From an uncultured Methanosarcinales archaeon (GTDB taxonomy: Archaea > Nanobdellota > Nanobdellia > Woesearchaeales > SKGA01), in assembly GCA_964428395.1 (NCBI GenBank), contig CAYRYB010000001.1, forward strand, positions 8,847-72,846: DNA of 64,000 nucleotides, in the 5' to 3' direction. The translations under genes and the position numbers were made by a program. Below the pieces are notes generated by a model, which did no database searches, was not told the origin of the DNA, and worked only from the letters and a program-made list of their open reading frames with translations. Positions 9,164-43,775 of this stretch are shown piece by piece; the first letter of the stretch is position 1, and every line of letters begins with the position of its first letter.

Positions 9164-9320
9164 GTTCTGTCCCAAAAGAAGATTTTTTAGCAGTATACTA
9201 CAAGCGGTGATATATTAAGATTCTCAAATCTCTTGTTAAGCATTACCTGAATCGTGCTTATGAGAACTTCACGCCAAGGCAGCAGCATACCTTGCTGTCT
9301 TTCTGGACAAGCCCTATATT
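9164..9320 (+). repeat. R1 structured repeat, copy upstream of argS (candidate ncRNA or MITE)
   Basis: Aligns with the reverse complements of 37462-37633 and 43625-43775; four stem-loops. Confidence 0.9.
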
Positions 9321-9393
9321 TAGAAATCATTATAAACAATAATCATCAATAAAAAAACTACAAGAAAAGCAAAACAAAAAGCAAAGAGGAAAA

Positions 9394-11124
9394 ATGGTAT
9401 TTACGAAGGAAATAGCAAAAAAAATTGCAAAAATCATATCTCAACCAGAAAATGTTATAGAAGAAATGCTTCAAGTTCCCAAAGAAAACAGTTTTGGAGA
9501 TCTTACATTCCCTTGTTTTTTATTTGCAAAGGAAATGAAAAAAAAACCTTCTGTGATTGCACAAAAGATTGCAAAAGAATTACAAATAGATTTTGCAACT
9601 GCAAAGGCAACAGGACCATATGTTAATATCACTATTTCTAACAATGCATTTATTTCACCAATTCTTCAAGATATTCTCACAAAAGAAAAACTACTGCAAA
9701 CAAACAATGCTTCTTTAGCAGGTGCTGTTACATTAATAGAATCACCAAGTCCAAATACCAATAAACCACTGCATCTTGGTCATTTGCGTAATATGTTTTT
9801 AGGAAGCACATTAAAAAACTTAAAAGAAGTACTTGGTCAAAAGTCTTTCATCGTTAATCTTGTCAATGATAGAGGAGTACACATTTGCAAGTCAATGTTA
9901 GCATATCAAAAATGGGGAAATAATCAAACACCCGAGCAGGCAGGAAAAAAAGGGGATCATTTTGTTGGTGATTGGTATGTAAGATTTAATCAAGAAGCAA
10001 AACAAAACGAGGAACTTGAACAGGAAGCACAAGACATGCTAGTACAATGGGAACAAGGAAACAAAGAAGTTATTGCGCTTTGGAAAAAAATGAATGAGTG
10101 GACGTATCAGGGATTTCAACAAACGTATAATCTTGTCAATTTTCATATTGATAAGAACTATTACGAAAGCGAGATTTACAAGAAGGGAAAAGAAATTATT
10201 TTAGAAGGCGTTAAAAAAAATATTTTCTACGAAGATAAAACAGGCGCAGTTGTTGTTGATTTAACAAATAAAAAACTTGATAAGAAAATTCTTCTCAGAA
10301 AAGATAAAACCGCAGTGTATATTACTCAAGATATCTTCCTTGCCAAACAACGCTTTGATGATTATCAGTTTAAAGAGCTTATCTATGTAGTTGGTAATGA
10401 ACAAGAATATCATTTCAAAGTACTTTTTGAAATTTTCAAAAAATTAGAATATCCTTTCGCGCAGAATTGTCATCATTTTTCCTATGGTATGATTGAGCTT
10501 CCTGATGGAAAAATGAAGAGTCGCGAAGGAAACGTGGTAGATATTGATGAGTTACTAGAGCAAACAACAAACCTAGCCAGAAGTGAGGTAAAAGAACGCT
10601 TTACAAACATAGATGAAAATGAAGTAAACAATCGTGCAAAAATTATTGCGCAAGGAGCTATTCGCTTCTTTTTTCTCAAATTTGACCCTGCAAGAAATTT
10701 TGTTTTTCATCCAAAAGAAAGTCTTTCATTTGAAGGCGAAACAGGACCGTACGTACAATATACTCATGCACGCATCGCATCCATTCTAAGAAAGAGCGAG
10801 AAAAATCAGAGTGCATCGACACCAAACACGCAAGGTAAAACGTCCTTTGATTTGTTAGACAATGCAGAAGAAAAAAAGATAGCTAGCATTCTCTATTCTT
10901 TTTCGGGTGTTGTAAAAGAAGCCGCTGAAAAACTCAAACCCAATCTTGTATGTAATTATTTGCTCACTCTTTGTCAATCATTTAACAAGTATTACGGAAA
11001 GTATAAAATAATTCAGGAGAATAAAAGTTTGCAAGCAGACAGAATTGCTCTTATTACTGCAGTTAATAAGGTTATCAAAGAAGGTCTTTTGCTATTGGGA
11101 ATCACCGCTCCTGAAAGAATGTAA
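9394..11124 (+). CDS. argS: Arginine--tRNA ligase
   Basis: FGDLTFPCF, SPNTNKPLHLGHLRN (HIGH-like), KMKSREG, FEGETGPYVQYTHARIASI, APERM C-terminus. Confidence 0.97.
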   Translation: MVFTKEIAKKIAKIISQPENVIEEMLQVPKENSFGDLTFPCFLFAKEMKKKPSVIAQKIAKELQIDFATAKATGPYVNITISNNAFISPILQDILTKEKLLQTNNASLAGAVTLIESPSPNTNKPLHLGHLRNMFLGSTLKNLKEVLGQKSFIVNLVNDRGVHICKSMLAYQKWGNNQTPEQAGKKGDHFVGDWYVRFNQEAKQNEELEQEAQDMLVQWEQGNKEVIALWKKMNEWTYQGFQQTYNLVNFHIDKNYYESEIYKKGKEIILEGVKKNIFYEDKTGAVVVDLTNKKLDKKILLRKDKTAVYITQDIFLAKQRFDDYQFKELIYVVGNEQEYHFKVLFEIFKKLEYPFAQNCHHFSYGMIELPDGKMKSREGNVVDIDELLEQTTNLARSEVKERFTNIDENEVNNRAKIIAQGAIRFFFLKFDPARNFVFHPKESLSFEGETGPYVQYTHARIASILRKSEKNQSASTPNTQGKTSFDLLDNAEEKKIASILYSFSGVVKEAAEKLKPNLVCNYLLTLCQSFNKYYGKYKIIQENKSLQADRIALITAVNKVIKEGLLLLGITAPERM

Positions 11125-11238
11125 TTTTTCTTCAAAAAATTTCATTAAAGAAAATGTAAAGGTAATAGAAGATAATACATAAACAAAGACAAAGAAGAAA
11201 CAAGAAAAGACAACAAAAAAATAAAAAGACAAAAAAGT

Positions 11239-11631
11239 TTATTCTAAATTCTCGTTAGTAACTTTTCCGCCACCACGATAAATTTGTGCAAAGCTTGGCG
11301 TTACAACAATATAGTCATCTCCAAAGCCAGCGATGTCTCCATCAATTGCTTCGCATGTCTTTTTTAATTTATTAATAGAACGTTTTAGTTCTAGTAAGTC
11401 TTTTTCTTTTAATGGCTTAATGTTAATAAGAGCTATAGTGTAGCTTTCTCGAAGCGCATCTAGTATCTCTCGCACGTCAGAGAAATCCGTTATCTCAAAT
11501 GGTCGCACAATAACTTTTTGATCAGGTTCGTGCGTACCAGAGTTTGCATCAAGTTCCACAAAGTCCTCTGTTTCCATATGATCGTCCTTATCAAATTGCT
11601 TTTCCTTTTTTCTAAAGAATCGTTTTATCAT
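11239..11631 (-). CDS. sepF: Cell division protein SepF
   Basis: DVREILDALRE...IALINIKPL...KLKKTCEAIDGDIAG....IVVTP; GGAGGT SD. Confidence 0.88.
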   Translation of the reverse strand: MIKRFFRKKEKQFDKDDHMETEDFVELDANSGTHEPDQKVIVRPFEITDFSDVREILDALRESYTIALINIKPLKEKDLLELKRSINKLKKTCEAIDGDIAGFGDDYIVVTPSFAQIYRGGGKVTNENLE

Positions 11632-11770
11632 CCTAATTAACCTCCATCAACAACAGCGTCATCCATAAAGGCAACGCTCTCACCCTTTTCGTTACGGAAA
11701 ATGAATAACAAGATATACTCTTTCTCAATTTATAAATGTTTTGATATTGTGACGTTATAGCATAAGAAAA

Positions 11771-11854
11771 CATGCTACGCTTAAAACAGAGTTCTACTAA
11801 GCATAAGTCTTACAGAAAGGAAGTATCAAAAAACTTGAAAATTTCAATAAGCCA
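11771..11854 (-). repeat. Degenerate partial R1 copy between sepF and radC
   Basis: CTACGCTT-N8-GTTCTACTAAGCA and TATCAAAAAACTTGAAAATTTCAATAAGCCA match, in order, CTACGCTT-N8-GTTCTATTAAGCA and TATCAAGAATTTGAGAATCTCAATATGTCA of the 43625-43775 copy. Confidence 0.65.
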
Positions 11855-11974
11855 TTTCAACACATACTATTCAACCTATAAATGTTAAGTCAAAAACGTT
11901 CAAATAGATTGTTCTGTACTTTTTTCGGAAAATACTAAGAAATTCTTTTAAATAAGTCAGATTTTAGTTTAAAA

Positions 11975-12634
11975 ATGCGCATTAAAGATATCTCTTTGGA
12001 TGATAGACCCAGAGAAAGAATGAAAAAGCAAGGAGCATCAGTACTTTCAGATGCAGAACTATTAGCAGTTATTCTGCAAAAGGGAACTAGAGAAGAAAAC
12101 GTCATTGATATGTCACATAGACTTATTTCTAAGTATGGCATTGATAAATTATCATCTTGTTCCTTAAAAGAATTAGAAGAGATTAAAGGTATTGGCAAAG
12201 CTAAAGCATCTCAAATACTTGCATTATTTGAATTCAATACAAGACATAATTTGGCTAAGCAAAACGGAAAACCAATAAGATCAGCAAAGGATGTTTTTGA
12301 TTTTTGTTCTCTTAAATTCTCAGGAGTAGATAGAGAACAATTTATGATATTGCATTTAGATACTCGTAATAGGGTGATTAAAGATGAAGTTGTTTCAGTC
12401 GGCACTTTAAACAGTTCTCTAATTCATCCTAGAGAGGTTTTCAAGTCAGCAATAAAAGAAAGTGCAAACGCAGTCATTTTAGTTCATAACCATCCTTCTG
12501 GCGATCCAGAGCCTTCGCAGGAAGATAAAAAAATAACAAACACATTACGTAAAGCAGGAGAATTGTTAGGGATAAACGTACTCGATCATATTATTATTGG
12601 GAATGAAAGATACTATAGTTTTATTGATAATTAA
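11975..12634 (+). CDS. radC: RadC family JAB-domain protein
   Basis: RPRERM, LSDAELLAVIL, GIGKAKA (HhH), HPREVFK, HNHPSGDPEPSQED, VLDHIIIG. Confidence 0.95.
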   Translation: MRIKDISLDDRPRERMKKQGASVLSDAELLAVILQKGTREENVIDMSHRLISKYGIDKLSSCSLKELEEIKGIGKAKASQILALFEFNTRHNLAKQNGKPIRSAKDVFDFCSLKFSGVDREQFMILHLDTRNRVIKDEVVSVGTLNSSLIHPREVFKSAIKESANAVILVHNHPSGDPEPSQEDKKITNTLRKAGELLGINVLDHIIIGNERYYSFIDN

Positions 12635-15600
12635 GGCTTTTTCTTTTTTTCATAGTTTCTTCTTTTTTCTGCAACAGCCATAATTGGAGGGTTATCAATT
12701 ATGTACTGATTTTTATTGTCTTCTTTATTTGTCTCGGACCATTTATCTGATAATACTTCTGCTTGTTCTAGTACGAGGTCTGTAGCCATTAAGGTTTTAT
12801 CTGGTGGATAACCATATTTTTTGAGAAGTCTTTTTACAATAACCCTAAGTTTTGCCCTGACTGTTTCTCTTAGTTTCCAGTCAATAGAGGTATTCTTTTT
12901 CACTATTTCTGTCATTTCTCGAGCTATTTTTTTTAATACTTCATCCCCGAGAATTTCTTTTGCACTTTCATTGTCTGCTAAGGCGTCATAAAATGCTATT
13001 TCTTCATCAGATAAACCAAGTTCTTCTCCTCTCGTATGTGCTTCACGAATATTCTTTGCTAAGTCTATGAGTTCTGCAATAACTTGTGCTGAGTCTATAC
13101 TTCTATTTTGATATTTGAGTATTGCTTCTTCAAGCATTTTTGAGAACTTCTTATTTTCAATTTTATTAGTTTTGAACCTTGTTCTTATTTCATCGTTGAG
13201 GATTTTCTTTAAGGTCTCAAATGCAAGGTTCTTGTATTCCATATTTTCAAATGTTTCTAAGAATTTATCTGAAAGTATTGATAGTTCTGGTCTTTGAATG
13301 TTTAATTCTTTAAAAACATCTATTTCTCCTTCTGCTTCAACAGCTTTTGAAACTAATTGTTTGATGACACTATCTGAAAGTCCTTTTGAAAGTCCTCCTT
13401 CTTTTGTTTCTGTTTTCATCAATGACCTTGAGATTGATTGGAATAAAGCTGCGTCTTCTCTGATTCCTTTTGCTTCTTCTGAGGTAATTGCAAGGTCTAA
13501 AGCTAACATTAATGCTTTTACATTTTTAACGAATCTTTTCTTTCCATCTTCTAAGCCTAAAATATGATTTTCTATTTGAAAGAAAATATCTACTCGTTTC
13601 TTTGTGCTTTTTGTTTTGAAATAATCTTTGTAATTATATCCAAAGAGCATATCTTTAACTATCTCATATTTTTCTTTTAGTATTGCGATTGCTTGGTCTC
13701 CATAACTTAAAGGATCATCTTTTCCTGCGGTTTTTGTGTATATAGTGACTGCTTTTCTTAATTCATCTGCTATTCCTATAAAATCAATGACTAATCCTGC
13801 TTCTTTATCTTTGTAGACTCTGTTTACTCTTGCTATGGTTTGCATGAGATTATGATGCTTTATTATTTTATCAATGTAAATGGTGTTAAGACAAGGAACA
13901 TCAAATCCTGTGAGCCACATATCTCTTACTATTGCTAATTTAAAGTCTGAATTCGGGTCTTTGAATATTTCTGCTAGTTTTTTTCTCTTTTCTTTGTTTC
14001 TTGTGTGCTCAACGTATTCTTTTCCGTCAGATGCTGCACCAGTCATGATTACTTTCATTATTCCTTTATCATCGTCTTTATGATAATATTCAGGTCTTAA
14101 CTTTTTAATTTCGTTATGTAAAGCGATTGCTATTCGTCTACTCATTACTACAACCATTGCTTTGCCGTTATTGAGTAATTGTCGCATTTCGAAGTGATTA
14201 ATAATTGATTTTGCAAGTTGTCTGATTCTTGGTTCGCTTCCTGCTAATGCTTCTATGGTTGACCATTTTCTTTTTTCTTCTTCAACTAAGTTGTTTTCTT
14301 CTTGTTCTGTATATTCATATATGAGGTCATCAATTTGCTTGAAGATTTCCTCGTTTTTCCCTAGTTTTATAAGTTTAGCATCATAAATTATTTTTACGAC
14401 TCGGTGGTCTTCTAACGCTTGGTGCATATCATAAATATCTATATAATCACCAAATACTTCCCTTGTACTTTTATCAGAGAATTCTATAGGTGTTCCTGTA
14501 AAGCCAATGAATGATGCGTTAGGAAGTGCATCCCGTAAGTATTTTGCAAGTCCATATTTTATAATATTTTTTTGTAATTTTGCTTTGAAACCATATTGTG
14601 TTCTGTGAGCTTCATCTGTTATTACAAGGATGTTATCTCTTCTTGATAATTCTTCAAACGTTGAACCATCCCTTGCTAAGAATTTTTGAATGGTGGTGAA
14701 GATTATTCCTCCTGAAGAAACTTTTAATGCAGTTTTTAGTTCTGTTTGCGATTTTATTTGTTTAGGTGATTCTTGAAATAATGTTAAGGAGGAGAAAGTG
14801 TCATATAATTGATTATCAAGGTCATTTCTATCTGTAAGAACGACTATTGTTGGATTCTTGAGTTTTGGATCCTTATTCATCAAAGCAGTGTAAAAACCCA
14901 TTGTAAAGCTTTTTCCAGAACCTTGCGTGTGCCAGACAACACCAATTTTTTTATTCTTGCCTATTGCTTTGTAGGTCCTTTGAATTGCTTTTTTTGTAGC
15001 ATTGTATTGATGATAACCTGCTAAGATTTTTGCATCTTTTGTGAAAGTCGTAAAGTTCTTTGCAATGTCTAAAATGGTTTCTCTATCACACATACCTCTT
15101 AACGTAGTTTCCAGAGAAGTTGTTTTTTGAAATGCTCCATTAACAGTTCTCCAAGGAAGAAACCATTCATAAGGAGAAGTTATTGTTCCTGCTTTTGTGT
15201 CTTTTCCATCAGAGATTATCTCAAACGTATTGTAATTGAACAATGTGGGAATATCATTATGATATGTTTGCAATTGTTTAAATGCGGTATCAATAGTTGC
15301 TTTGGGATTAGTTGGACTTTTCAGTTCGATGGTAACGATAGGAAGTCCATTGATGAATAGTATGATATCAGGTCTTCGATTCTTCTTATTCTCAATGATG
15401 GTGAATTGATTGATTGCCAAGAACTCATTTTGTTTAGGTTTTTCAAAGTTGAATAGTTGAACAAGATCTCCTTTGATTCTTCCTTTGAAACGATATTCTA
15501 CTTCAACGCCAGTTGTAAGAAACTTTTGGAAAACCTTATTGTTTTTAAAGAGTTTATGACTTGTTGAACGAAGAACTTTCTTTAAAGCTTCTTCTTTAGC

Positions 15601-15795
15601 CTCGGCAGGAATGTCAGGATTAAACTTGTCTATTGCATTTCTTAGTCGTTCAACTAAGACAACATCATCCCACCTTGCTCGTTCAGGCTTAGAACCGTCA
15701 GGAGCAATCTCAGGACCATAAACTACTTTGTAGCCTAACTCTTGAAGTATTTCAAGACCTGCATCCTCTATATCTTGTTCAACAATAAATTTCAT
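12631..15795 (-). CDS. hsdR: Type I restriction endonuclease subunit R
   Basis: RPDIILFINGLPIVTIELK (PD-ExK), HTQGSGKS, DEAHR, FTGTP, MWLTGFDVP, LMQTIARVNR; start at MKFIVEQ. Confidence 0.96.
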   Translation of the reverse strand: MKFIVEQDIEDAGLEILQELGYKVVYGPEIAPDGSKPERARWDDVVLVERLRNAIDKFNPDIPAEAKEEALKKVLRSTSHKLFKNNKVFQKFLTTGVEVEYRFKGRIKGDLVQLFNFEKPKQNEFLAINQFTIIENKKNRRPDIILFINGLPIVTIELKSPTNPKATIDTAFKQLQTYHNDIPTLFNYNTFEIISDGKDTKAGTITSPYEWFLPWRTVNGAFQKTTSLETTLRGMCDRETILDIAKNFTTFTKDAKILAGYHQYNATKKAIQRTYKAIGKNKKIGVVWHTQGSGKSFTMGFYTALMNKDPKLKNPTIVVLTDRNDLDNQLYDTFSSLTLFQESPKQIKSQTELKTALKVSSGGIIFTTIQKFLARDGSTFEELSRRDNILVITDEAHRTQYGFKAKLQKNIIKYGLAKYLRDALPNASFIGFTGTPIEFSDKSTREVFGDYIDIYDMHQALEDHRVVKIIYDAKLIKLGKNEEIFKQIDDLIYEYTEQEENNLVEEEKRKWSTIEALAGSEPRIRQLAKSIINHFEMRQLLNNGKAMVVVMSRRIAIALHNEIKKLRPEYYHKDDDKGIMKVIMTGAASDGKEYVEHTRNKEKRKKLAEIFKDPNSDFKLAIVRDMWLTGFDVPCLNTIYIDKIIKHHNLMQTIARVNRVYKDKEAGLVIDFIGIADELRKAVTIYTKTAGKDDPLSYGDQAIAILKEKYEIVKDMLFGYNYKDYFKTKSTKKRVDIFFQIENHILGLEDGKKRFVKNVKALMLALDLAITSEEAKGIREDAALFQSISRSLMKTETKEGGLSKGLSDSVIKQLVSKAVEAEGEIDVFKELNIQRPELSILSDKFLETFENMEYKNLAFETLKKILNDEIRTRFKTNKIENKKFSKMLEEAILKYQNRSIDSAQVIAELIDLAKNIREAHTRGEELGLSDEEIAFYDALADNESAKEILGDEVLKKIAREMTEIVKKNTSIDWKLRETVRAKLRVIVKRLLKKYGYPPDKTLMATDLVLEQAEVLSDKWSETNKEDNKNQYIIDNPPIMAVAEKRRNYEKKKKP

Positions 15796-15876
15796 ACTAC
15801 TCAAAATACGATTATTCTTTATAAACAAATGGTTTTTCCGGGTTTTTTTCAATAAAGTTTATAAACATATTTCTCA

Positions 15877-16560
15877 TTGTATCATGTTATGGAAGCTGTC
15901 ACTAAGAACGGGTTGTTTAACGAATCGTGGTTTTCTGGTTTTCGAACCGTCATTGAGAAGTCATTTATAAAGGTTAATTACAAAGTAAACGCAGTAGTTA
16001 TTCTTCAAAAAATAAAAACTCTAGATATTGATAAAGATAAAATCGTTCTTAAAATCAAAAATCTTTCTGAAGATGAATGGTCTTACAAGTATTTAGTATC
16101 AACTCTGAAAGAATTAGATGAGATAATGAAAATTTCTGATGATTTTCTGAGAAAACACGCAGTTCAAGAATTGCAAGGTCGCGATTTAACAGAAGTTAAA
16201 TGGGAAATTATGAAAGGTATGCTGACTGATTACGCTAAATTCACTAAAGAATTTTATGATTCACTCAAATATTCTCAGAACTCTAAATTAGGAAGAAAAA
16301 GATATTTACTTATGATAGAACTAATGAATGCACTAAAAAAAATTTATGATGCTTCAAAACAACTCATCGATAAATTTTCACAAAAGAAATATAATAAAAC
16401 TTCTTTTAAGAAGTTTATGAGTACGCGAATAGCTTTAGAACACTTATTACTAAGAGTTTTTTATATTCTGCTAAATATTGACAAAGAAGAGAATTTTATT
16501 AAGTATAGAGACGTTCTTTCTAGAGAAATAATAGAATATACTGTCCGTCAAGCAAAATGA
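15877..16560 (+). CDS. Helical hypothetical protein, coupled to PIN gene
   Basis: 227-aa ORF; ATGA overlap with the next gene. Confidence 0.75.
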   Translation: MYHVMEAVTKNGLFNESWFSGFRTVIEKSFIKVNYKVNAVVILQKIKTLDIDKDKIVLKIKNLSEDEWSYKYLVSTLKELDEIMKISDDFLRKHAVQELQGRDLTEVKWEIMKGMLTDYAKFTKEFYDSLKYSQNSKLGRKRYLLMIELMNALKKIYDASKQLIDKFSQKKYNKTSFKKFMSTRIALEHLLLRVFYILLNIDKEENFIKYRDVLSREIIEYTVRQAK

Positions 16561-17255
16561 TTTCTAACGATGTTAATGTGATATTTGCTTTTCTAGATAT
16601 AAAACATAAATTCCATATTCAGTCAAGTCTGTTCGTAGTGAAAAACCAAAGAAGAAAACTCGTTGTGTTGGCAAACGTTATGAAGAGTTTTCTTAAGACA
16701 TATAAAAATTATATTGTGCAAGTAGGAGCCATAATAGAACACCAAGTTGTATTCTGTAAAGAAGAAAGAAAAAAATCACCTATAAAAAACCCTTCAACCA
16801 CACATATAGCAATATTGGTAAATGCAGGGATAAATAACGAATTAAAAACTCTTAGTTCAATGCCAAATTATTCTTTCGATGCGTTATTAAGATTTAAAGA
16901 CTTGTTATTAACCGATTTCTCAATTCCACAACTTTATTTTGAGGAAAACGCAATAGGAGAGTTTAGAGAAAAATTCATAGACCGATCGGAAAAATTCTCT
17001 CTCGACTCTATAAACGAATTCGTAACAAAGTTCAACCAAAAAAGAATAATGAAACAAAATGATTATAAAAACTATGAAAACTTTCTCTCCGATTTAAAAT
17101 CAATGAAAGATTATGAAGACAGGAGAATTTGTGCAGAATTATTCTGCTTCGGCGAAGAGAAGAAAGCAATTCAGTTTCTGACTTTTGATAACACTTTTAA
17201 ACAATATTTAAGGAAATTCGGCTCCAAACATAATGTTAAAGTATTATCTGTTTAA
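16557..17255 (+). CDS. Divergent PIN-domain (RNase-like) protein
   Basis: N-terminal DVNVIF and C-terminal EDRRICAE...FLTFD match the PIN acidic-residue layout. Confidence 0.65.
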   Translation: MISNDVNVIFAFLDIKHKFHIQSSLFVVKNQRRKLVVLANVMKSFLKTYKNYIVQVGAIIEHQVVFCKEERKKSPIKNPSTTHIAILVNAGINNELKTLSSMPNYSFDALLRFKDLLLTDFSIPQLYFEENAIGEFREKFIDRSEKFSLDSINEFVTKFNQKRIMKQNDYKNYENFLSDLKSMKDYEDRRICAELFCFGEEKKAIQFLTFDNTFKQYLRKFGSKHNVKVLSV

Positions 17256-17291
17256 GAAAAATACTTTCAATTTCTTGTTCAACAATGAATT

Positions 17292-17555
17292 TCATAAATT
17301 CTTCACCTTAAATATTTTTTTAACATCATTCCTATTAAGAATCAAAAAGAAATAAGAACCAACGATTAAATAAATACAAATCTTTAATGCTTGTTCTGAA
17401 AAGAAACCATAAGTTCCTATTGTAAATTTATAGAATAATAATAAATGAAATGCTCCAAAAAGAAGAATGATCCATAAAACTGTTGATAATACACCATACA
17501 AAATAGATAAAATTATTTCTCCAAAGGTTGCTTTAAGAGGGGTTTTTTTAGTCAT
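17292..17555 (-). CDS. Small two-TM membrane protein
   Basis: Start reassigned to ATG 17555 (MTKKTP, ATGA overlap, GGAGGA SD); two hydrophobic helices. Confidence 0.7.
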   Translation of the reverse strand: MTKKTPLKATFGEIILSILYGVLSTVLWIILLFGAFHLLLFYKFTIGTYGFFSEQALKICIYLIVGSYFFLILNRNDVKKIFKVKNL

Positions 17556-17725
17556 TGGAAACTCCTCCAATCTAATTCTTGACCACAATTCGGACAAGTT
17601 TTATTTGCACTGGTAACAGGATAATTACATCTAGGACACTTTCCTTTCTTCTTTCTACTCAAAAGCCACCATAGTAGCGCAAGACCACCAATAGTCAATA
17701 ATGTATTTTTATCTTCTTGTTTCAT
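17552..17725 (-). CDS. 57-aa membrane-anchored zinc-ribbon microprotein (missed by ORF track)
   Basis: MKQEDKNTLLTIGGLALLWWLLSRKKKGKCPRCNYPVTSANKTCPNCGQELDWRSFQ*; fits exactly between its neighbours. Confidence 0.85.
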   Translation of the reverse strand: MKQEDKNTLLTIGGLALLWWLLSRKKKGKCPRCNYPVTSANKTCPNCGQELDWRSFQ

Positions 17726-17728
17726 TTT

Positions 17729-18097
17729 TCAAAGTAATTTTAGTTTTTTAGCTTGTTTTACAAATTTCTTTTGTTTCTCAATATATAAAACAGGATTTTG
17801 TTGTATTGGTTCATAAATCCTTTCAATCTCGTGTTGAGAAGAAACTTCTAAGCCGCATTGACTACAATAATAATTTACTGTTCCAACAGGTGTATGAAAA
17901 AATGATTCCATAGTGAATGCTTTTGTTGTTTCATTAAGAGTGACTTTGCAATGAGGACAAATGTTCTTTAATTGATTTATTTTTATTTGTCTTCTATTTT
18001 CTAGAAACTTATTTAGATCAAAGTTTAAGCTTATTTTAATAGCTATAAATCCTATTACGCCCGCAATTATTAGTTTAATAATTTCTTCAGTTGTCAT
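17729..18097 (-). CDS. Membrane-anchored zinc-ribbon protein
   Basis: N-terminal TM helix, then CPHC...CSQC; ATGA overlap with hsdS. Confidence 0.8.
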   Translation of the reverse strand: MTTEEIIKLIIAGVIGFIAIKISLNFDLNKFLENRRQIKINQLKNICPHCKVTLNETTKAFTMESFFHTPVGTVNYYCSQCGLEVSSQHEIERIYEPIQQNPVLYIEKQKKFVKQAKKLKLL

Positions 18098-19359
18098 AGC
18101 ATATCCTCTTTAACTCTAATCTTTCCAGTCATGAGTTTTGGAAGAAGTAAGTCTCTTTGTTTTTTCAATGACTCAATTTCAACACCATTTAAGACGTATT
18201 TATCAACAAGAGGTTCAAATAATTTATTCAATGATTCCAATTCTGAAGGAATTAAAACCATTGATTCAGATAAGTGTTTTCTCTGAATGTGTCCCATAGT
18301 TGTTGCTTTGTCAGATGCAATCCTAATAAATTTTTCAAGATGAAATTTTGTCCAATAATAATAAAACCATTTAGGATAAATATCAGAAGTGACTTTAAAT
18401 AAATGTTGATTCAAAGCACCTTTTCCAAAAGTCCACAAATCAACCACTAAACTTCCAGACCAAGAAAATATAACGTCACCATTTTGCAAAATATATTTTT
18501 CTGGAACATCACTATTTGCCATATCTGTTGAAGAAGTAATTCCTTGTTTTAATTCTCTAATTTTAATAACAGGTAAATCATCGTTTCCTCGTGGAGGATA
18601 TTTTTGTAGTGCCAAACCATTCAAATAATCAGCGACATTATCAAGAGAATTTATTTTCCAGCCTTTAGGAATCTCCCCCAACTCACTTTCAACCATTTCT
18701 CCTCCTGATGATTTGTAAGGTTTTCCTTCTTCATTTGGAAACTCAAAATTAACAAACCAATGCTTAAAAATTGTTTTTCCAATATTTTCAAGAGTTTTGT
18801 TTTGTTGTTGAAGAAGTTCTATTTTAAAGTCAAGGTCTGAGAGGATTTTTGCAATGGCTTTTTGCTCAGGTAAAGGAGGAATTGGAATTTTTAATTCTGC
18901 GATAGTATTTGCATTAAATTGCGGTTGTGCTCCCCCTGTTGCTAAATTATTTGCTTGATTCCAATAACAATTCCCTCTTGTAAATTGAAAAAAATAATTA
19001 GAATCTATTTTTTTGTCATCTAATAAAAATTTTATTAAGAATCCACCATATGATGCTTTAAATTCTTCTTTAAATAAATATGTTTTACCGAAACTTGCCC
19101 CAGTTCTGGCAACTAAAATATCTCCTTTATTCAAAATTGTTTCAGGCTTGACTTTTTCTTTTTGAATAAATACAAGATTATCTTTTTTGAGAAATCCATC
19201 TGACGTAATATCTGTTATTCTAATATAAATATATTCTCCTTTTTTTTGAGCACTCTCTCCAAGACCATATTGAAATTTAGAGATGTTACTAAGTCTGATT
19301 AAATTCCAATCTTCAGGAATCAATCCTATTTCAGTTTGTTTGAATTTTGTTTCAGCCAT
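18094..19359 (-). CDS. hsdS: Type I R-M specificity subunit S
   Basis: IGLIPEDW, IPPLPEQKAIAKIL, ELGEIPKGW, RDLLLPKLMTG; two TRDs. Confidence 0.96.
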   Translation of the reverse strand: MAETKFKQTEIGLIPEDWNLIRLSNISKFQYGLGESAQKKGEYIYIRITDITSDGFLKKDNLVFIQKEKVKPETILNKGDILVARTGASFGKTYLFKEEFKASYGGFLIKFLLDDKKIDSNYFFQFTRGNCYWNQANNLATGGAQPQFNANTIAELKIPIPPLPEQKAIAKILSDLDFKIELLQQQNKTLENIGKTIFKHWFVNFEFPNEEGKPYKSSGGEMVESELGEIPKGWKINSLDNVADYLNGLALQKYPPRGNDDLPVIKIRELKQGITSSTDMANSDVPEKYILQNGDVIFSWSGSLVVDLWTFGKGALNQHLFKVTSDIYPKWFYYYWTKFHLEKFIRIASDKATTMGHIQRKHLSESMVLIPSELESLNKLFEPLVDKYVLNGVEIESLKKQRDLLLPKLMTGKIRVKEDML

Positions 19360-19360
19360 G

Positions 19361-20140
19361 TTAAAATCTCATTCTCGATTCTATGATGTCCTTTTTTTTC
19401 GTTATTGCGTTGATTATGAATTGTTCAAAATCTTCTTTAGGATAATTGGAATTTTCCACTTGAGTGCCATGCATTACTGCTAAGCTTCGTGCCACACCTG
19501 AAACCCAGAGAGGGGTTTGAGTATAATATCTTGATAAGAATGAATATAATAGCTTTAGTTGTGTTAGATGTTCTTTAAATGAATCTTCTGATGTTGTGCT
19601 CAAGTTCGTATCTAATCTAATATTAATTATTTTTTTTAGTTCTTCATTTGTAGCTTCTTCAGTATTTGTTTTTCCTCTATAATACACTCTGTTTTTGTGT
19701 AATGTTTCTCCTGATGATTTCAAGGATAAAAAAGGAAGATGTTCTGGAATACTTTCAACCATCAAAACTTGAAATTTTTTGTTTGTGATTGATTTCCACT
19801 CAACAGATGAATCATAGTCAAAATCGTGTATTGAATAAGTTAACTCTGAAGGTATGTAATTTGTTTGTTGACTCTGGATAACTGTTTTATCCGTAAATTC
19901 TGTTAATCCTATTGGAATTAATGAACCATCTTGTTCTTCTTTAACACCTATTACTAAAACTCCTCCTCCTGCGTTGGCAAATCCTAGTATGTGTTTAGCA
20001 AGTTTATCTTTGTCCATCCACTTTTCCTTAAAATCAATGTGATTATACTCGCCAGTATTGTTTTTTAATAGTTCTCTGAATTTTGCACGATCAGGAGATT
20101 CGCAAAATTTTGCGAAATCCTCTTTTATTGTATTTACCAT
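19361..20140 (-). CDS. Schlafen/AlbA_2-domain protein
   Basis: EYNHIDFKE...LAKHILGFANAGGGVLVIGVKE and YYRG.TNTEEA. Confidence 0.85.
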   Translation of the reverse strand: MVNTIKEDFAKFCESPDRAKFRELLKNNTGEYNHIDFKEKWMDKDKLAKHILGFANAGGGVLVIGVKEEQDGSLIPIGLTEFTDKTVIQSQQTNYIPSELTYSIHDFDYDSSVEWKSITNKKFQVLMVESIPEHLPFLSLKSSGETLHKNRVYYRGKTNTEEATNEELKKIINIRLDTNLSTTSEDSFKEHLTQLKLLYSFLSRYYTQTPLWVSGVARSLAVMHGTQVENSNYPKEDFEQFIINAITKKKDIIESRMRF

Positions 20141-20151
20141 GTGTTTACCAT

Positions 20152-21267
20152 TTATTCATCTTCAGACATGCCTAACATATTTATTTGTAGGTCTTTAATT
20201 AGTCTTATTAGTTGATTCAATCCTACTTCGTTTTCTATTGCAGGTATTAATTTGATTAGTATTTGTTGCATTCTTTCTGCAAAGTCTTTTTTATTTAGCA
20301 TGTCAATAAAGTAATTTCCTTTTGTGATGTTATATTGTTCTTTTAGTTTGTCTTCTATTTCTTTTTCTTTTTTTTTGAGTTCTTGCTTTGTTGTCTCTGA
20401 GATTGTTATTGAATCCCACATAAATGATATCTTTATGTTATATACTCTGATTTGTTTTTTGCTCATCGAGACTAGCAGTTTACTTATTTTCTCTTTTTGT
20501 TCTTTTGATATTCTATCTTCAATCATATCAAGAACGAGCAATAGTGATAATAAATATGGTTGCGCAACTATTATTATTGGATGCTTGTTCTTTATTGTTT
20601 TTCTAAACCATCTTACTTCTGTGTCAGATATTGTTGGCAGGATTTTTTGTTTTGTTTCTTCCAGGTATTGGTAGTATTTTTCTACAAATGAGTTATAGTC
20701 TAGCGCTCCGTCTTTAAATATGATAAATGCACTCAAACCTGGAACTTTTACCCTAAATGCGTTTTCTTCTTTTAAGGATAATACGTAATCTGCAAAAATT
20801 GATGTATTTTTGATTTCTTTTTTTACTTTCGCAGGAGTTTTCTCTCCTGATTCTAATACATAATATGCGTTACCTTTGCTAATTAGTTTTTTTTCTATGT
20901 CTTCTATTAGGTGTATTCCTTTTTCATCTAATATTTCTAAAAATTTTGAAATAAGTGGGTTGTGTTTATCAATTAGTTTTTTTGTTATTTCTTTTGATTC
21001 TGTTTTGGTCATTTCTTGCTGAAGTTCCTTTTGTCCTTGTAGTTTATCTAATGTAATTGCCTGATTTTTTTTTGAGATTTTAGTTATTACTATCGATAAT
21101 AATATGGATATTAATGCATAAAATAAAATAAGTTTTCTTACTTTAATAAAATCTGTTGTTATTATCAAAGATAATATCATCACAACTACTAAACCTGCTA
21201 TTACTATATTCACTAAGTTTTTCCCAGCTAAGTTGTTTATTCCGTTTATTATTCTGTCGTGGTTCAT
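20152..21267 (-). CDS. Two-TM protein with large soluble domain of unknown function
   Basis: Two N-terminal hydrophobic helices, then ~300 aa soluble region. Confidence 0.75.
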   Translation of the reverse strand: MNHDRIINGINNLAGKNLVNIVIAGLVVVMILSLIITTDFIKVRKLILFYALISILLSIVITKISKKNQAITLDKLQGQKELQQEMTKTESKEITKKLIDKHNPLISKFLEILDEKGIHLIEDIEKKLISKGNAYYVLESGEKTPAKVKKEIKNTSIFADYVLSLKEENAFRVKVPGLSAFIIFKDGALDYNSFVEKYYQYLEETKQKILPTISDTEVRWFRKTIKNKHPIIIVAQPYLLSLLLVLDMIEDRISKEQKEKISKLLVSMSKKQIRVYNIKISFMWDSITISETTKQELKKKEKEIEDKLKEQYNITKGNYFIDMLNKKDFAERMQQILIKLIPAIENEVGLNQLIRLIKDLQINMLGMSEDE

Positions 21268-21716: not shown

Positions 21717-22211
21717 TCATTGGGAACTATTTTCTTCACCTGATCCTTCTTGGTGGATTATTCTATTTCGCCAATTCCTTACTGATTCTAATGTGTCAAA
21801 TGTTTTATCTTCTGAATCAATACCAAAATCATCTAAATGGTTTTTTATATATTCTAAAGAGATCATCTTACCAAAATGCACTTTATCTGCATTAGTTAAA
21901 TCCGATATTTGTTTTATGCTTTCAAAGCTATCCACTTTGTGCACCACAAACCCTTTTTCTAAAACAAGAGCTTTTAGTAAGAATTCAAAACCTATTCCTA
22001 AATATACTTTATCAATATCATCGTCGAATTGCATTTCAAATATTGGTTTACTGACTGATTCAATTATCTTATTGAATTTCTTATTTATGCTATTGTGTCC
22101 TGATTTCACTACGAATCTAAATTCCCATTCATAAAGGTTATTTCTTATTCTAGCAACATCTGCTGGCGTATCGTAGTCAAAATATTTATCTCCTTGTTCT
22201 TGATATGTCAT
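21717..22211 (-). CDS. HEPN-like protein
   Basis: Helical protein with E.LLKA mid-region and C-terminal RNRIIH (R-X4-H). Confidence 0.65.
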   Translation of the reverse strand: MTYQEQGDKYFDYDTPADVARIRNNLYEWEFRFVVKSGHNSINKKFNKIIESVSKPIFEMQFDDDIDKVYLGIGFEFLLKALVLEKGFVVHKVDSFESIKQISDLTNADKVHFGKMISLEYIKNHLDDFGIDSEDKTFDTLESVRNWRNRIIHQEGSGEENSSQ

Positions 22212-22212
22212 C

Positions 22213-22294
22213 TTATTCTACCTTAAACCCAATCCCTTCAAGGTTCTTCTTGATTTCTTCGTCAAGTCTTGCTCCTTCTTTCATTTGTTTTGCA
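22213..22294 (-). pseudogene. Duplicated hsdM 3' end (82 bp; encodes [26 protein letters not shown])
   Basis: 78/82 identical to 23180-23261; the four differences are all synonymous. Confidence 0.92.
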
Positions 22295-22311: not shown

Positions 22312-23178
22312 TTATTGAAGTTTCTCTAAGATTTTCACTGATTCTTTATTCATCTTTGAGAATGCAAACCATTTCTTACCTAAGTCTTTTAAAGATGCTC
22401 CAAGATGATAAACTTCTTTTTCATCAATTATCAAAAATCTATCATGACTTTTATTAAATTCTTTTAAAACAATTGGTTCATATTGCGAATTAAACTTTTT
22501 AACATCTAATTGTAATTGTTTAGAAATATTCTTAGTATATATTCTAACGGAAACGTTTTTATTTCTTTTAGAAAATAAAGTAAGAACCGACTCATCAATA
22601 TAATTATCAACTAATATTAATGAAGTTTTTACTTTTTTTACTAAATCTGAAACAAATTTATAAGCATCAAAAACTTGCCCATCATAAAAAATTCCTTGTT
22701 TTGGTTCATTATGTTCCAATGCTTTAAACAATTTATCAAATTTTTTGTCATGTTCCAACAGTTTCATTTCAGTTCTGTCTAACCTTTGAAAGATCTGAGC
22801 ATTATTCACTAAGAAGCGTCGCATTTTTACAAAAGCATCAATTATTTGAATACTTATCTCAATGGCTTTATCACTTCTCAAAACAGCAGAAAGCATCGAA
22901 ACTCCTTGTTCTGTAAAAACATGAGGCAAACTTGAAGAATGTTTAAGAGATTTCAACCGGTCACAATTTGTGACCAGTTCATTTTTCTCATTTTCAGTCA
23001 GTTTAAACATAAAATGCTCTGGAAATCTTTCAATATTTCTTTTTACAGCTTGATTCAATACTTTTGTAGAAACCCCATATAAAATAGCAATATCATAATC
23101 AACAATAACTTGAATATTTCTAATAGTAAAAATTCTATCTTTAATATTGTCCGTGGAAATAGTTATTGATTTATTCAT
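22312..23178 (-). CDS. ORF6N (KilA-N-like) DNA-binding domain fused to PLD-like nuclease domain
   Basis: LYGVSTKVLNQAVKRNIERFPEHFMF...FTEQGVSMLSAVLRS; C-terminal SHDRFLIID..VYHLGASLKD. Confidence 0.85.
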   Translation of the reverse strand: MNKSITISTDNIKDRIFTIRNIQVIVDYDIAILYGVSTKVLNQAVKRNIERFPEHFMFKLTENEKNELVTNCDRLKSLKHSSSLPHVFTEQGVSMLSAVLRSDKAIEISIQIIDAFVKMRRFLVNNAQIFQRLDRTEMKLLEHDKKFDKLFKALEHNEPKQGIFYDGQVFDAYKFVSDLVKKVKTSLILVDNYIDESVLTLFSKRNKNVSVRIYTKNISKQLQLDVKKFNSQYEPIVLKEFNKSHDRFLIIDEKEVYHLGASLKDLGKKWFAFSKMNKESVKILEKLQ

Positions 23179-23179
23179 A

Positions 23180-30792: not shown

Positions 30793-30916
30793 TGGGCCCA
30801 GCCGGACTCGAACCGGCGATTAATGCCTCACTTAACAGAAAACCTTTTTTCGCCAGAAGCGCTAACAAGATTTACCATTTGTAAGGGCACTGTCATAGCC
30901 ACTAGACCATAGGCCC
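30793..30916 (-). tRNA. tRNA-Val (TAC) with 51-nt intron at 37/38 (intron 30829-30879)
   Basis: Acceptor GGGCCTA/TGGGCCC, anticodon stem GTGCC/GGCAT, T arm GCCGG-TTCGAGT-CCGGC; BHB with helix CTTA/TAAG and bulges CAA and TGA. Confidence 0.92.
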
Positions 30917-35863: not shown

Positions 35864-37336
35864 TTATATTTTCCTTACTTCTTGTCCATTTGGTGTGTCT
35901 CGGACTTCATAGCCCTTCTTTTTAAGCTCCTCTCGAAGCGCATCGCTCACGGACCAATTTTTTGCTTCTCGAGCAGATTCTCGTTGTGAAAGTAGTTCTG
36001 CAATTTCTGCAGGTATTGTATCTTCATTTAAGAGTTCAGAAGGCAAAAATCCAAAGAGTGAATCTAAATCTAAAATAGTTTTTAAAATTTCTTTTGCTTG
36101 AGTTTCACCTAAAACATGTTCATCAAGTGCTTTGTTAATATGTTTTATTCCTTCAAAAAGTGCGCCAAAAGCACCGCTCGTGTTTAAATCATCATCAATT
36201 TCTCGTTCTATTGCAAGTTTCATTTCGCGTATGAGTTGGGCAAGAGGTTCATTATACTCATGTTCTAATCGAAGCGTGTTGAGTTTTTTAAGCGTGTCAT
36301 CAATACGAGTCAAAGCTTGTGTTGCTGCGCGAAGACCATTCTTTGTGAAGTTAAGTGTTTGTCGATAATGTGATGATAAAAGCAAATACCGTATCGCTCG
36401 CCAACTAAAACCTTCTTTAAGTAAGTCAAAAACATAATAGACGTTACCTTTTGACTTGCTCATCTTTCCGCCTTCTACTTGCAAATGTTTTGGATGAAGC
36501 CAATATTTCACGTACTGCTTGCCAAAAGCGCCTTCGCTTTGAGCAATTTCACATTCATGATGAGGGAAGCGATTATCTTCTCCTCCCGTATGCACATCAA
36601 TTGTTTGAAATCCTTGTGCTGAAAGTTTTCCCGTTGCAAAAGCATCCGTAAGAAACTTAGCACTCATAACACTACACTCTGCATGCCATCCAGGATATCC
36701 TTTTCCCCAAGGACTATCCCATTGCAAAATGTGATTTTCAAATTTTGAGTTTTGAAACCAAAGAACAAAATCATAAGGATTCTTCTTGTTAGGATCCTGT
36801 TCTACACGATGTTTAGTAAGTTTTTCAAGCGTGTTACCCGAAAGTTTTCCATAATCAGGAAAGGATGTGACATCATAATAAACATTTCCTCCTGAAATAT
36901 ATGCATGACCTTTTTTGAGAAGTTCTTCTACGAGCATAATAATTTCTGGGATAACTTCAGTTGCTTTGGGTCGATATTCTATTTCTTCAAGGTGAAGACT
37001 TTTCCAGTCTTTAAGGAATGCGTCCGTGTAGAACTTTGCAATTTCTAAAGGGTGTTTCTTTTCTTTTCTGGCAGTCATCTCCATTTTATCTTCGCCAGTA
37101 TCACTATCATTCGTTAAATGACCAACGTCAGTGATATTCATAACTTGCGTTACGTGATAGCCTTTATAGATAAAGACTCGTCTAAGAAGATCAGCAAACA
37201 TAAAGCTTCTAAAATTTCCTATATGTTGAAAGCCATAGACGGTTGGACCACAATTATACATGCGTACTTTTCCAGGAATAACCGGCACAAATTCTTCAAG
37301 CGTATTAGATAATGAATTATAAAGTCTTAGAGTCAT
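35864..37336 (-). CDS. cysS: Cysteine--tRNA ligase
   Basis: YNCGPTVY, HIGN, GYPGWHAECS, HHECE, KMSKSKGN; start at MTLRLYNS. Confidence 0.97.
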   Translation of the reverse strand: MTLRLYNSLSNTLEEFVPVIPGKVRMYNCGPTVYGFQHIGNFRSFMFADLLRRVFIYKGYHVTQVMNITDVGHLTNDSDTGEDKMEMTARKEKKHPLEIAKFYTDAFLKDWKSLHLEEIEYRPKATEVIPEIIMLVEELLKKGHAYISGGNVYYDVTSFPDYGKLSGNTLEKLTKHRVEQDPNKKNPYDFVLWFQNSKFENHILQWDSPWGKGYPGWHAECSVMSAKFLTDAFATGKLSAQGFQTIDVHTGGEDNRFPHHECEIAQSEGAFGKQYVKYWLHPKHLQVEGGKMSKSKGNVYYVFDLLKEGFSWRAIRYLLLSSHYRQTLNFTKNGLRAATQALTRIDDTLKKLNTLRLEHEYNEPLAQLIREMKLAIEREIDDDLNTSGAFGALFEGIKHINKALDEHVLGETQAKEILKTILDLDSLFGFLPSELLNEDTIPAEIAELLSQRESAREAKNWSVSDALREELKKKGYEVRDTPNGQEVRKI

Positions 37337-37461
37337 AAAAAAGAAAGAACAAAGGATATTTAAAAAACTATGCTTCAAAACAGGTTATTTTGTAATAATT
37401 TCACCCAAAAAAGAAGTTTAAGAAAGAATCAGGAAGATTCCCAAGAGAGTAATAATAACGG

Positions 37462-37633
37462 CACTGCCCAAAAAGGCAGAACAAACTGTATGCTACTGTC
37501 TTGGCGCGTGGTTCTAGTAAGCACGATTCATGCAGTGTTTATCAAGAGATTTGAGAATCTTTACTGCTTCACTGCTTGTAGTATACTACAAAAAATCTTT
37601 TTTACTACAAAAAATCTTCTTTTTAGGCAGAGC
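37462..37633 (-). repeat. R1 structured repeat, copy upstream of cysS (with internal duplication)
   Basis: Aligns with 43625-43775 and with the reverse complement of 9164-9320; CTACAAAAAATCTT is duplicated. Confidence 0.9.
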
Positions 37634-37698
37634 CATAGTAACGAAACTTTTAAATAACGAACTCAGATAACGAGTAAAGCAAGCGAAAGGTTCTTTTT

Positions 37699-40637: not shown

Positions 40638-40649
40638 AATTTGTAATAC

Positions 40650-41370: not shown

Positions 41371-41491
41371 ATACTTGCGTATAAACAATATTTTTATTTT
41401 TTATTTTTATGTTGTTTTTTATGTTGTTTTCTCTTTTATCATGCTACAATCAACATAAAAGTAATTTATTTGAAGAAGTATATACCATTGC

Positions 41492-42049: not shown

Positions 42050-42161
42050 AATCCCCAACTCCTCTTGTATTCCCAAAGTCTCTTTTGTAAGTCATCCTTA
42101 TATATCTTTCTTTTTTAATGAGAAAAGAAGAATGAGAAAAAGAATTTTCGGGTTAACGTAC

Positions 42162-42515
42162 TTATTTTTTCGGTTGAAACTCATTCACAACGTCAAAAAT
42201 ACGTTTTAGGTTTTCTTTTGTTATGGTTACAGTGTATCCAGAAAGGATCACTTTTAGATGTTCTGGGCTTTCTGGAAGTAAATCAGCTATTTTTATCATT
42301 TGTTGTTCTTTAAGTCGAGGAATTTGAAGTTCTTCGAGTTTTTTGATAAGATCTTTTACTTTTTTAGTGCTCAAACGCGATGTGTCGTTAACATATTCTT
42401 CAGTCTTACCACCTCTAAAGGTGAGTTCTTCGTCCCGTTTGTGAATTACTTTAACAATGTCTTTTACTTCACTAATGCTTATTGGTTTTTGTTCTAGGAT
42501 TTCTGGTTTGACCAT
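42162..42515 (-). CDS. rpoF: RNA polymerase subunit Rpo4 (F)
   Basis: KIADLLPESPEHLKVIL HRDC-like region; synteny. Confidence 0.88.
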   Translation of the reverse strand: MVKPEILEQKPISISEVKDIVKVIHKRDEELTFRGGKTEEYVNDTSRLSTKKVKDLIKKLEELQIPRLKEQQMIKIADLLPESPEHLKVILSGYTVTITKENLKRIFDVVNEFQPKK

Positions 42516-42526
42516 TTTTCTGTACC

Positions 42527-42817
42527 TCAGACGCTTCGAAGATGAACTGGATGTACGACAACCGTTTTTGCTTTTCCTAAATCATTAATTTTAATTTCGT
42601 AGCATGCACCTACCTTTTTTGAAATGGTTCCAACTTTACCATAAAACCGTGGAAAATACATTCCTTGCTGATATGCTGGTTCCGCGCCAAGCTTTACTTT
42701 TTCACCAACTTCAAATGTCTGCAAAAAGTTGCGAAGACTTACTTTTCCTCGTTGTGAAACGTTTTTACGCATCTTTTGACGTGTTTTTCGTCTAAAACCA
42801 CCTACTCTATCTACCAT
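42527..42817 (-). CDS. rpl21e: 50S ribosomal protein eL21
   Basis: GFRRKTR, GMYFPRFYGKVG, VVHPVHL. Confidence 0.95.
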   Translation of the reverse strand: MVDRVGGFRRKTRQKMRKNVSQRGKVSLRNFLQTFEVGEKVKLGAEPAYQQGMYFPRFYGKVGTISKKVGACYEIKINDLGKAKTVVVHPVHLRSV

Positions 42818-42879
42818 TGTTCTGTCCTCAGGAAATCATAATTTCTTTATAAAGCTTTGTCAAACTCTTTGTTAAACCT

Positions 42880-43446
42880 TTAATGCAAGCGGTTACTATT
42901 CGCCTTTTGTGTTGGCCGTACTTTTTCAGCGCCAATTCCTCTCTTGTGAAGACCACGACTTTTTCTTCCCGAGCTTGTCATACCTCGAAAGACTCGTCCT
43001 TTTTGCAAAGATATCCAATTCAGATTTTCATCTTTTAATACTGCTTTGCTCGTTCTATCTACCATGATGACTTCAAACCACTTATTTTGACCATCTTGCA
43101 AAACGAAATAGGAGTTTAGTACTTCACAATTCGTATATTTTCTTGCAACTCGTTCTTCTGCAACTTGTTGATACGATTTGTTCACTACTTTTTTTTGAGT
43201 GTTTGCTTTTGGTCGTCGACCACCCTTAATATCAGGTCGTACATGACCACCACGAGTTACTCGCTGTCGTACAACAAAAACACCTTGTTTTGCTTTATAA
43301 CCTAGCGATCGTGCTCTGTCAAGTCGTGTTGGTTTTAGAACGCGTAGGGTTACTGGTTCTCGTCGAAATTGCAATAAGTATTCTCTAATCGCAGTATGTT
43401 CTTTTGGCTTTTTCCAAGCCTCTCGAATATATTTATAAGCTCCCAT
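42880..43446 (-). CDS. rpl15e: 50S ribosomal protein eL15
   Basis: MGAYKYI, PTRLDRARSLGYKAKQG, EVLNSY, RVFRGMTSSGRKSRGL. Confidence 0.97.
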   Translation of the reverse strand: MGAYKYIREAWKKPKEHTAIREYLLQFRREPVTLRVLKPTRLDRARSLGYKAKQGVFVVRQRVTRGGHVRPDIKGGRRPKANTQKKVVNKSYQQVAEERVARKYTNCEVLNSYFVLQDGQNKWFEVIMVDRTSKAVLKDENLNWISLQKGRVFRGMTSSGRKSRGLHKRGIGAEKVRPTQKANSNRLH

Positions 43447-43624
43447 GCTTACATCAGCCTCCATTGTTTAATGTACTTCGTTTTCAGAGTTCAGGCAAGC
43501 TACGCCCACATTCAACTAAAAACGTTTGTAACGCTGGAAACCAATATTCGTTTATAAATGTATCTTCTCTACAAATTCGTGTAAAATAATGATAAAAAAG
43601 ACACTATTCAATAGCAATAGCATA

Positions 43625-43775
43625 ATTTAGGCTCCGTCCAGAAAAACAGCAAGGTACACTACGCTTGGTGCGTGGTTCTATTAAGCACGATTCATGCAGT
43701 GTTTATCAAGAATTTGAGAATCTCAATATGTCACCGCTTTAGTATTCTACAAAAAATCTTCTTTTTAGGCAGAGC
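43625..43775 (-). repeat. R1 structured repeat, copy upstream of rpl15e
   Basis: Aligns with 37462-37633 and with the reverse complement of 9164-9320. Confidence 0.9.

Follow-up and report, generated by a model that had tools for sequence, protein, structure and literature searches.

Dispersed repeats in a Woesearchaeal genome fragment are probably copies of a lineage-specific miniature inverted-repeat transposable element

We examined a 64,000-nt stretch of DNA from an uncultured archaeon (contig CAYRYB010000001.1; hereafter the window), for which an initial annotation had described three dispersed copies of a structured non-coding element, R1, with covarying stems and placed upstream of housekeeping genes. 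Judging from the sequence, these repeats are probably copies of one non-coding, non-autonomous miniature inverted-repeat transposable element (MITE) of 147-175 bp, specific to the lineage of the Woesearchaeote that carries them. We favor this reading because the copies have inverted repeats and 8-bp duplications, because orthologous sites in relatives are empty, because one copy is truncated and another probably decayed, and because assemblies break within copies. The initial annotation had missed both the terminal inverted repeats and the direct repeats of 8 bp that flank the copies. As marks of a MITE we used a length of ~50-800 bp without coding sequence, terminal inverted repeats with a minimum length of 10-15 bp, target-site duplications specific to each copy, dispersed copies with presence and absence among relatives, and a cognate autonomous element.

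The window (G+C content 34%) is part of a 214-kb scaffold, SONG20-1_SAMN10739806_METAG-scaffold_1 (ENA ERZ23499380), of which positions 183-81864 (~82 kb, the window plus ~10 kb on each side) were examined for genes and element copies. The host is a Woesearchaeote (DPANN), per protein comparison: its closest ArgRS and CysRS matches are 71% and 80% identical, respectively, and the named matches belong to Woesearchaeota or Nanobdellota. The copies and the tRNA genes that flank two of them are listed here, with scores from a covariance model (CM) built from c1-c4:

8978-9053: tRNA-Arg(GCG), flanking c1
9163-9313, + strand: copy c1, 151 bp, between tRNA-Arg(GCG) and argS; CM score 161 bits
37460-37634, - strand: copy c2, 175 bp, between the divergent tRNA-Cys(GCA) and cysS; CM score 164 bits
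37699-37769: tRNA-Cys(GCA), flanking c2
43630-43776, - strand: copy c3, 147 bp, between an open reading frame (ORF) of 112 aa (43806-44144, +) and rpl15e (-); CM score 160 bits
L023 ~7612-7751, outside the window on the same scaffold: copy c4, between rpl44e and rps27e
11751-11897, - strand: candidate copy c5, in the divergent sepF / radC intergenic region; CM score 21 bits, E ~0.01 over 190 kb

Run over 190 kb including the relatives described below, the CM recovered the known copies and one weak match (c5), and nothing else. An nhmmer profile of the element gave strong matches in the window to c1, c2 and c3 only, and sequence reading, alignment and nhmmer all agree with the initial annotation on three homologous copies at essentially these places. 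Two blocks that it had listed as invariant, AGATTCTCAAAT and TGAATCGTGCTTA, have three exact occurrences each in the window, all within c1-c3. The internal core AGATTCTCAAAT ... TGAATCGTGCTTA..AGAAC..CCAAG is unchanged across the four clear copies, and the shared core of the copies is 75-88% identical when aligned. Within c2 there is a 19-nt tandem duplication (AAGATTTTTTGTAGTAAAA / AAGATTTTTTGTAGTATAC, ~37581-37618). The 3' end of c4 is complete and its 5' terminus with the inverted repeat is missing, making it a 5'-truncated copy. Candidate c5 retains ...TTGAAATTTTCAAGTTTTTTGATAC... and GCTTAGTAGAAC...TTAAGCGTAGCAT and aligns locally with c3 (z = 9.2) and c4 (z = 5.7), with an nhmmer E-value of only 0.41; on this weak evidence, c5 is probably a decayed fifth copy.

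The element has no coding capacity, with stops in all six frames across the copies; one antisense 95-aa ORF over c2 was judged spurious, and a protein search with it retrieved no homologue. In the same run (SRR8443420), independent Logan contigs begin or end within c2, c3 and c4, which we count as support for the MITE reading because assemblers usually break at dispersed repeats. The density of copies is four clear and one weak of a single family in ~82 kb.

Copies c1, c2 and c3 each end in imperfect terminal inverted repeats of 15-16 bp. In two of these three full copies, 8-bp direct repeats of AT-rich target DNA lie at offset 0,0 from the inverted-repeat ends, and their sequence differs between c2 and c3. 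The repeats and duplications are as follows:

9163-9178, + strand: c1 5' inverted repeat, GGTTCTGTCCCAAAAG
9299-9313, + strand: c1 3' inverted repeat, CTTTCTGGACAAGCC
37619-37634, - strand: c2 5' inverted repeat, GGCTCTGCCTAAAAAG
37460-37475, - strand: c2 3' inverted repeat, reverse complement GGCACTGCCCAAAAAG
37635-37642, - strand: c2 upstream target-site duplication, GTTACTAT
37452-37459, - strand: c2 downstream target-site duplication, GTTATTAT, 7/8 against the upstream one (GTTAYTAT)
43761-43776, - strand: c3 5' inverted repeat, TGCTCTGCCTAAAAAG
43630-43645, - strand: c3 3' inverted repeat, reverse complement GGCTCCGTCCAGAAAA
43777-43784, - strand: c3 upstream target-site duplication, TAAATTAT
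43622-43629, - strand: c3 downstream target-site duplication, TAAATTAT, 8/8 against the upstream one

Searched at up to three mismatches, GGCTCTGCCTAAAAAG gave three matches against 0.52 expected, all of them at element ends. With random 8-mer pairs 160 nt apart in the window as the null for the flanking repeats, the 8/8 match of c3 has P = 1.9e-4 without positional slack and 4e-3 with a slack of +-3 nt, and a match of at least 7/8, as in c2, has P = 2.5e-3 and 4e-2, respectively.

To these ends can be added the state of the same sites in three relatives, L084 (JGI 3300031601), L085 (GCA_021734105.1) and L087 (JGI 3300040801), whose CysRS are 73-80% identical to that of the host (80% for L084). 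No element match was found in any of the three by nhmmer (E<=1) or by the CM. L085 and L087 share the CCA-enzyme / rpl15e / rpl21e / rpb4 / L11 / cysS synteny with the host. When aligned with the relatives, c2 is located between the conserved TATA box of tRNA-Cys (TATTTAAAAG) and that of cysS, and the spacer aligns with theirs once c2 and one copy of the duplication are removed; c3 is located ~65 nt upstream of the conserved rpl15e TATA box. The comparison of empty and filled sites that the initial annotation had proposed therefore finds the orthologous c2 and c3 sites empty, which indicates that c2 and c3 are insertions in the host lineage. As the relatives are only 73-80% identical, these empty sites are not strain-level polymorphism.

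Public collections were scanned as well, namely genome_contigs (one genome per GTDB species), metagenome_contigs (JGI metagenomes) and viral_contigs (IMG/VR). Exact two-block scans retrieved 11, 4 and 0 loci, respectively, which nhmmer resolved as chance matches in unrelated bacteria, and two further scans of viral_contigs, with the inverted repeat and with the core block, gave single chance matches only. We would like to note that exact 21-base matching misses copies below ~95% identity and is thus weak evidence of absence. Within these near-identity scans, the element family appears to be known only from its own sample.

We propose that a DDE transposase, either lost by now or with its gene elsewhere in the genome, would bind the inverted repeats in trans, cut AT-rich sites with an 8-bp stagger and insert the element, with gap repair producing the duplication. 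In a compact genome, the surviving insertions would be those in spacers upstream of promoters, and such survival combined with a preference for AT-rich (TATA-like) targets would place copies just 5' of the TATA boxes of argS, cysS, rpl15e and rps27e. The apparent outer stem of the element would then be its two inverted repeats pairing, the short inner stems being indistinguishable from chance. If the repeats are indeed a MITE, they document recent transposon activity in a reduced Woesearchaeal genome and account for the local assembly breaks and for unusually long promoter-proximal spacers; the partner transposase would reveal which insertion sequence (IS) group is active in the host lineage.

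As to the origin of the element, an archaeal IS6-like group is most likely the best fit, with ISL3 as the alternative. The IS6-like assignment is made because of the 8-bp duplication, the GG tips, the G at position 7 and the A-rich inner part of the ends. The IS6/IS26 family makes 8-bp duplications (also PMC6807381 Table 5), its inverted repeats of 14-20 bp are tipped with GG and contain TGT at positions 6-8 as well as a caaa motif, and it is abundant in archaea, with two known MITEs (PMC7986276), which ISfinder lists at 227 and 336 bp (PMC7986276, PMC6807381). Its consensus end, GGTTCTGTTGCAAA, is bacterial, and archaeal IS6-like ends keep GG and G7 without G10 (PMC6807381). The c1 5' end (GGTTCTGTCCCAAA) matches this bacterial consensus at 12/14 positions (random P = 2e-5), five other ends match at 8-9/14, and the c1 3' end matches at 6/14, or at 8 with a 1-nt gap. 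GG tips and G7 are each found at six of the seven element ends and G10 at none, while TGT at positions 6-8 is present at the c1 5' and c4 3' ends, and at the c1 3' end too if a 1-nt gap is allowed. ISL3 elements have 8-bp, often AT-rich duplications and GGCTCTTC... ends (PMC6305408); listed examples are ISArsp7, with ends GGCTCTTCGCGG... and 8-bp direct repeats, and ISPst2, with AT-rich 8-bp repeats (PMC6305408 Table 3). Compared with this one ISL3 example, ISArsp7, the element ends match at 6-8/14.

Several points weigh against the MITE reading and its assignment. Among the called genes and precomputed Pfam matches of the ~82 kb, there is no DDE transposase, tnpA, tnpB or iscB, nor a longer element with the same ends; tnpA, tnpB and iscB are genes that the initial annotation had suggested might adjoin some copies. 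The autonomous partner is thus hypothetical, and the four to five copies are the full set studied in this span. IS6-type elements move via cointegrates, which makes simple MITE spread less straightforward, and the ends alone, as compared here, do not separate IS6 (most at 8-9/14) from ISL3 (6-8/14). The inverted repeats are conserved no better than some internal blocks (12-13 invariant bases), which leaves room for constraint on the interior. Finally, c1 has no recognizable target-site duplication at its ends. On the 5' side it is flanked by part of another repeat, R2b (9076-9133), and where the host has the tRNA-Arg/c1 region upstream of argS, relatives carry a ~290-aa ORF, which suggests that the host region has been rearranged. 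Remnants of that ORF were sought upstream of the host argS and none were found, and only tentatively would we explain the missing c1 duplication by local rearrangement.

The surroundings of the copies bear on another possibility, that the MITE has since been co-opted and that some copies act in cis on neighboring genes, which we consider unlikely. One possible form of this would be termination or insulation of read-through by the T6 tract near the 5' end (GATTTTTTGTAG) together with the T-rich 3' hairpin, and another a protein-binding site just upstream of strong promoters. Every clear copy lies 76-184 nt upstream of a start codon and, as the initial annotation had recognized, 5' of the TATA-like box of the neighboring gene (argS, cysS, rpl15e or rps27e), those of cysS and rpl15e being conserved in relatives. 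Translation genes adjoin 4/4 clear copies, internal blocks of 12-13 nt are invariant in all four, and c1 and c4, which lie between tandem genes, are both co-oriented with the genes that flank them. However, c2, c3 and c5 sit in divergent intergenic regions, so that any orientation of theirs counts as co-oriented with and upstream of one neighbor; the co-orientation with the downstream gene that had been taken as a signal is hence automatic for c2 and c3, and orientation is informative for c1 and c4 only (p = 0.25). Clustering of the invariant columns in the shared core falls short of significance (p 0.07-0.17), what is probably a fifth copy lies decayed between sepF and radC, and the same genes in relatives run without the element. 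A little less probable again is that a MITE-derived core is under selection while its termini drift, forming a domesticated module upstream of highly expressed translation genes that would serve as a regulator platform or contain an internal small RNA.

The initial annotation had taken compensatory changes in four stems as a sign of selection on RNA structure. It had proposed a multicopy non-coding RNA family (guide-like or a scaffold), which would be transcribed in the same direction as the downstream gene and keep four conserved stems, or a cis element for translation genes. We regard such an RNA family as improbable. All copies do have short complementary segments, with 93% of cells pairable in the four proposed stems, and several loop-like blocks are invariant. 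Nevertheless, only 1 of 19 pairs, in the 3' hairpin, has changed on both sides, a result equalled in 258 of 500 column shuffles in a covariation test that has low power on four sequences; every other stem change is a one-sided G-U wobble. RNAalifold reports a single compensatory pair for each strand. Stripped of their termini, c1, c3 and c4 are no more stable on either strand than dinucleotide-shuffled sequence (z -0.47 to +0.32). For whole copies z is -1.5 to -3.6 and much the same on both strands, because their ends pair, as those of a DNA inverted repeat do. Subterminal hairpins are present, one of A5/T6 near the 5' end and one, CTGCC-TTTTTG-GGCAG, 4 nt away from the 3' end. Rfam searches, at the gathering threshold over the whole window and at E<=10 around c1, c2 and c3, retrieved only tRNAs and chance-level matches, and no homologue was found in the relatives or, by the near-identity scans, in the three public collections. 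Additionally, neither target-site duplications nor inverted termini are features of RNA genes, and truncated and decayed copies exist. The claim of a structured RNA is accordingly unsupported, not disproved.

Transposons had also been among the candidates of the initial annotation. Of these, a MITE outside the IS200/IS605 type agrees with the inverted repeats, duplications and empty sites. The other, a non-autonomous IS200/IS605-type element (palindrome-associated, or an orphan right end resembling omega/reRNA) moved as single-stranded DNA by a TnpA-type transposase, is very improbable. The subterminal hairpins near both ends and a size similar to that of omega-RNA scaffolds would suit it, but members of the IS200/IS605 family lack terminal inverted repeats and do not duplicate their target, and R1 has inverted repeats and duplications alike; nor was any Rfam match (even at E<=10) found for it, or any tnpA, tnpB or iscB gene in the ~82 kb.

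We give next to no credence to a T-box-like or leader-type cis-regulator of aminoacyl-tRNA synthetase genes. Two copies do have a tRNA gene on one side and the gene of the cognate synthetase on the other, as the initial annotation had partly noted in placing two copies next to tRNA genes, but the element is upstream of conserved TATA boxes and hence outside the mRNA leader. The tRNA-Cys gene is directly beside cysS, in either orientation, in L084, L085 and L087, all of which lack the element; this adjacency is, on such a comparison, ancestral and unrelated to the element. The argS relatives have neither a tRNA nor the element upstream of argS, other copies flank rpl15e, rps27e and sepF, and no copy accompanies hisS or ileS on the same scaffold. 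The T-box-like idea was therefore rejected and a false lead removed, as nothing found here supports regulation of synthetase and ribosomal-protein genes by an archaeal RNA, whether T-box-like or of another kind.

The tRNA-Arg(GCG) beside argS is specific to the host genome, where it replaces the ~290-aa ORF of the relatives, and the occurrence of a cognate tRNA adjoining its synthetase gene twice in 64 kb is unlikely by chance. For cysS (35864-37336), the start is at 37336 and not at the TTG at 37378. A second repeat, R2 (58 nt, 88% identical), has two copies in the ~82 kb, R2a at 4909-4966 (-) and R2b at 9076-9133 (+). R2a lies upstream of an L7Ae gene, bracketed by a perfect 9-nt inverted repeat, TATCCCAAA/TTTGGGATA (4895-4903 / 4974-4982), and R2b lies between tRNA-Arg and c1 without the 9-nt bracket. 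The spacer upstream of L7Ae exceeds that of the relative L018 by ~170 nt, and given this longer spacer R2a may also be an insertion.

Downstream of c3, the rpl15e leader (~43446-43535, -, within 43446-43560) is conserved and structured, with counterparts in L085 (3219-3334) and L087 (3740-3853). Its order is a TATA box (ATTTATAAA), a hairpin, a conserved AATGGAGGCT (Shine-Dalgarno) and the start ATGGGAGCTTAT at 43446. The outer stem of the hairpin has two compensatory pairs and encloses a 25-nt block, GGATGTGGGCGTAGCTTGCCTGAAC, which is almost identical in three Woesearchaeal genomes whose CysRS are only ~73% identical; the version in the window starts with GAATG.... No Rfam match was found for this leader. 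It is a candidate L15e autoregulatory leader, and looks more like a functional RNA element than R1 does. The mechanically called rpl15e ORF (42880-43464) begins 18 nt early, since conservation with relatives supports the start ATGGGAGCTTAT at 43446.

Beyond the element and its neighbors, the window holds a tRNA with a 52-nt intron after position 37 (30793-30916, -), which matches Rfam, is missed by ARAGORN and has the anticodon UAC (Val) by eye; the relative L021 has a tRNA-Val(UAC) at the same syntenic place. A type I restriction-modification cluster (12631-21267) includes hsdR (12631-15852), hsdS (18094-19359) and an AlbA_2/Schlafen-like gene (19361-20140), with hsdM further on (~23180-24685). 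The cluster is inserted between sepF/radC and an SRP54-prefoldin block that is contiguous in relatives. An 87-nt direct repeat, 94% identical (22208-22294 / 23175-23261), lies at the 3' ends of two adjacent genes, an ORF6N-domain gene and hsdM, and suggests a recent partial duplication or gene conversion.

Among known systems, R1 resembles structured multicopy RNAs and cis-leaders (Rfam families, T-box, IS605 omega-RNA/HEARO) in its length and short hairpins. Unlike these, it has no Rfam match, no covariation above shuffles and no strand asymmetry, lies outside transcription units, and has inverted termini and target duplications. With ISL3 elements it shares the 8-bp duplication and, at the c2-c4 ends, an initial GGCTCT; it differs in the weak match past these first six bases and in that no transposase was found in ~82 kb. 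ISL3 inverted repeats are also usually longer. Archaeal IS6/IS26 MITEs resemble it in the 8-bp duplication, the short repeats with, at most ends, GG tips and G7, an A-rich inner part and no G10, the absence of an ORF and the archaeal host. Unlike the known IS6 MITEs, R1 is shorter (147-175 bp), most of its ends reach only 8-9/14, no transposase was found in the same ~82 kb, and its internal sequence is unrelated to anything retrievable. We know of no described IS6-type MITE from a DPANN archaeon.

The closest likeness in kind is to the MITEs catalogued in DPANN archaea. R1 differs from these in that its sequence, in the searches described above, matched nothing public outside its own sample. 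MITEs have already been reported to be dense in DPANN, with 105 per Mb in a Woesearchaeal genome (PMC11602168). R1 is the same kind of element, intergenic and taxon-restricted like those (PMC11602168), and would thus add one lineage-specific family to a known class.

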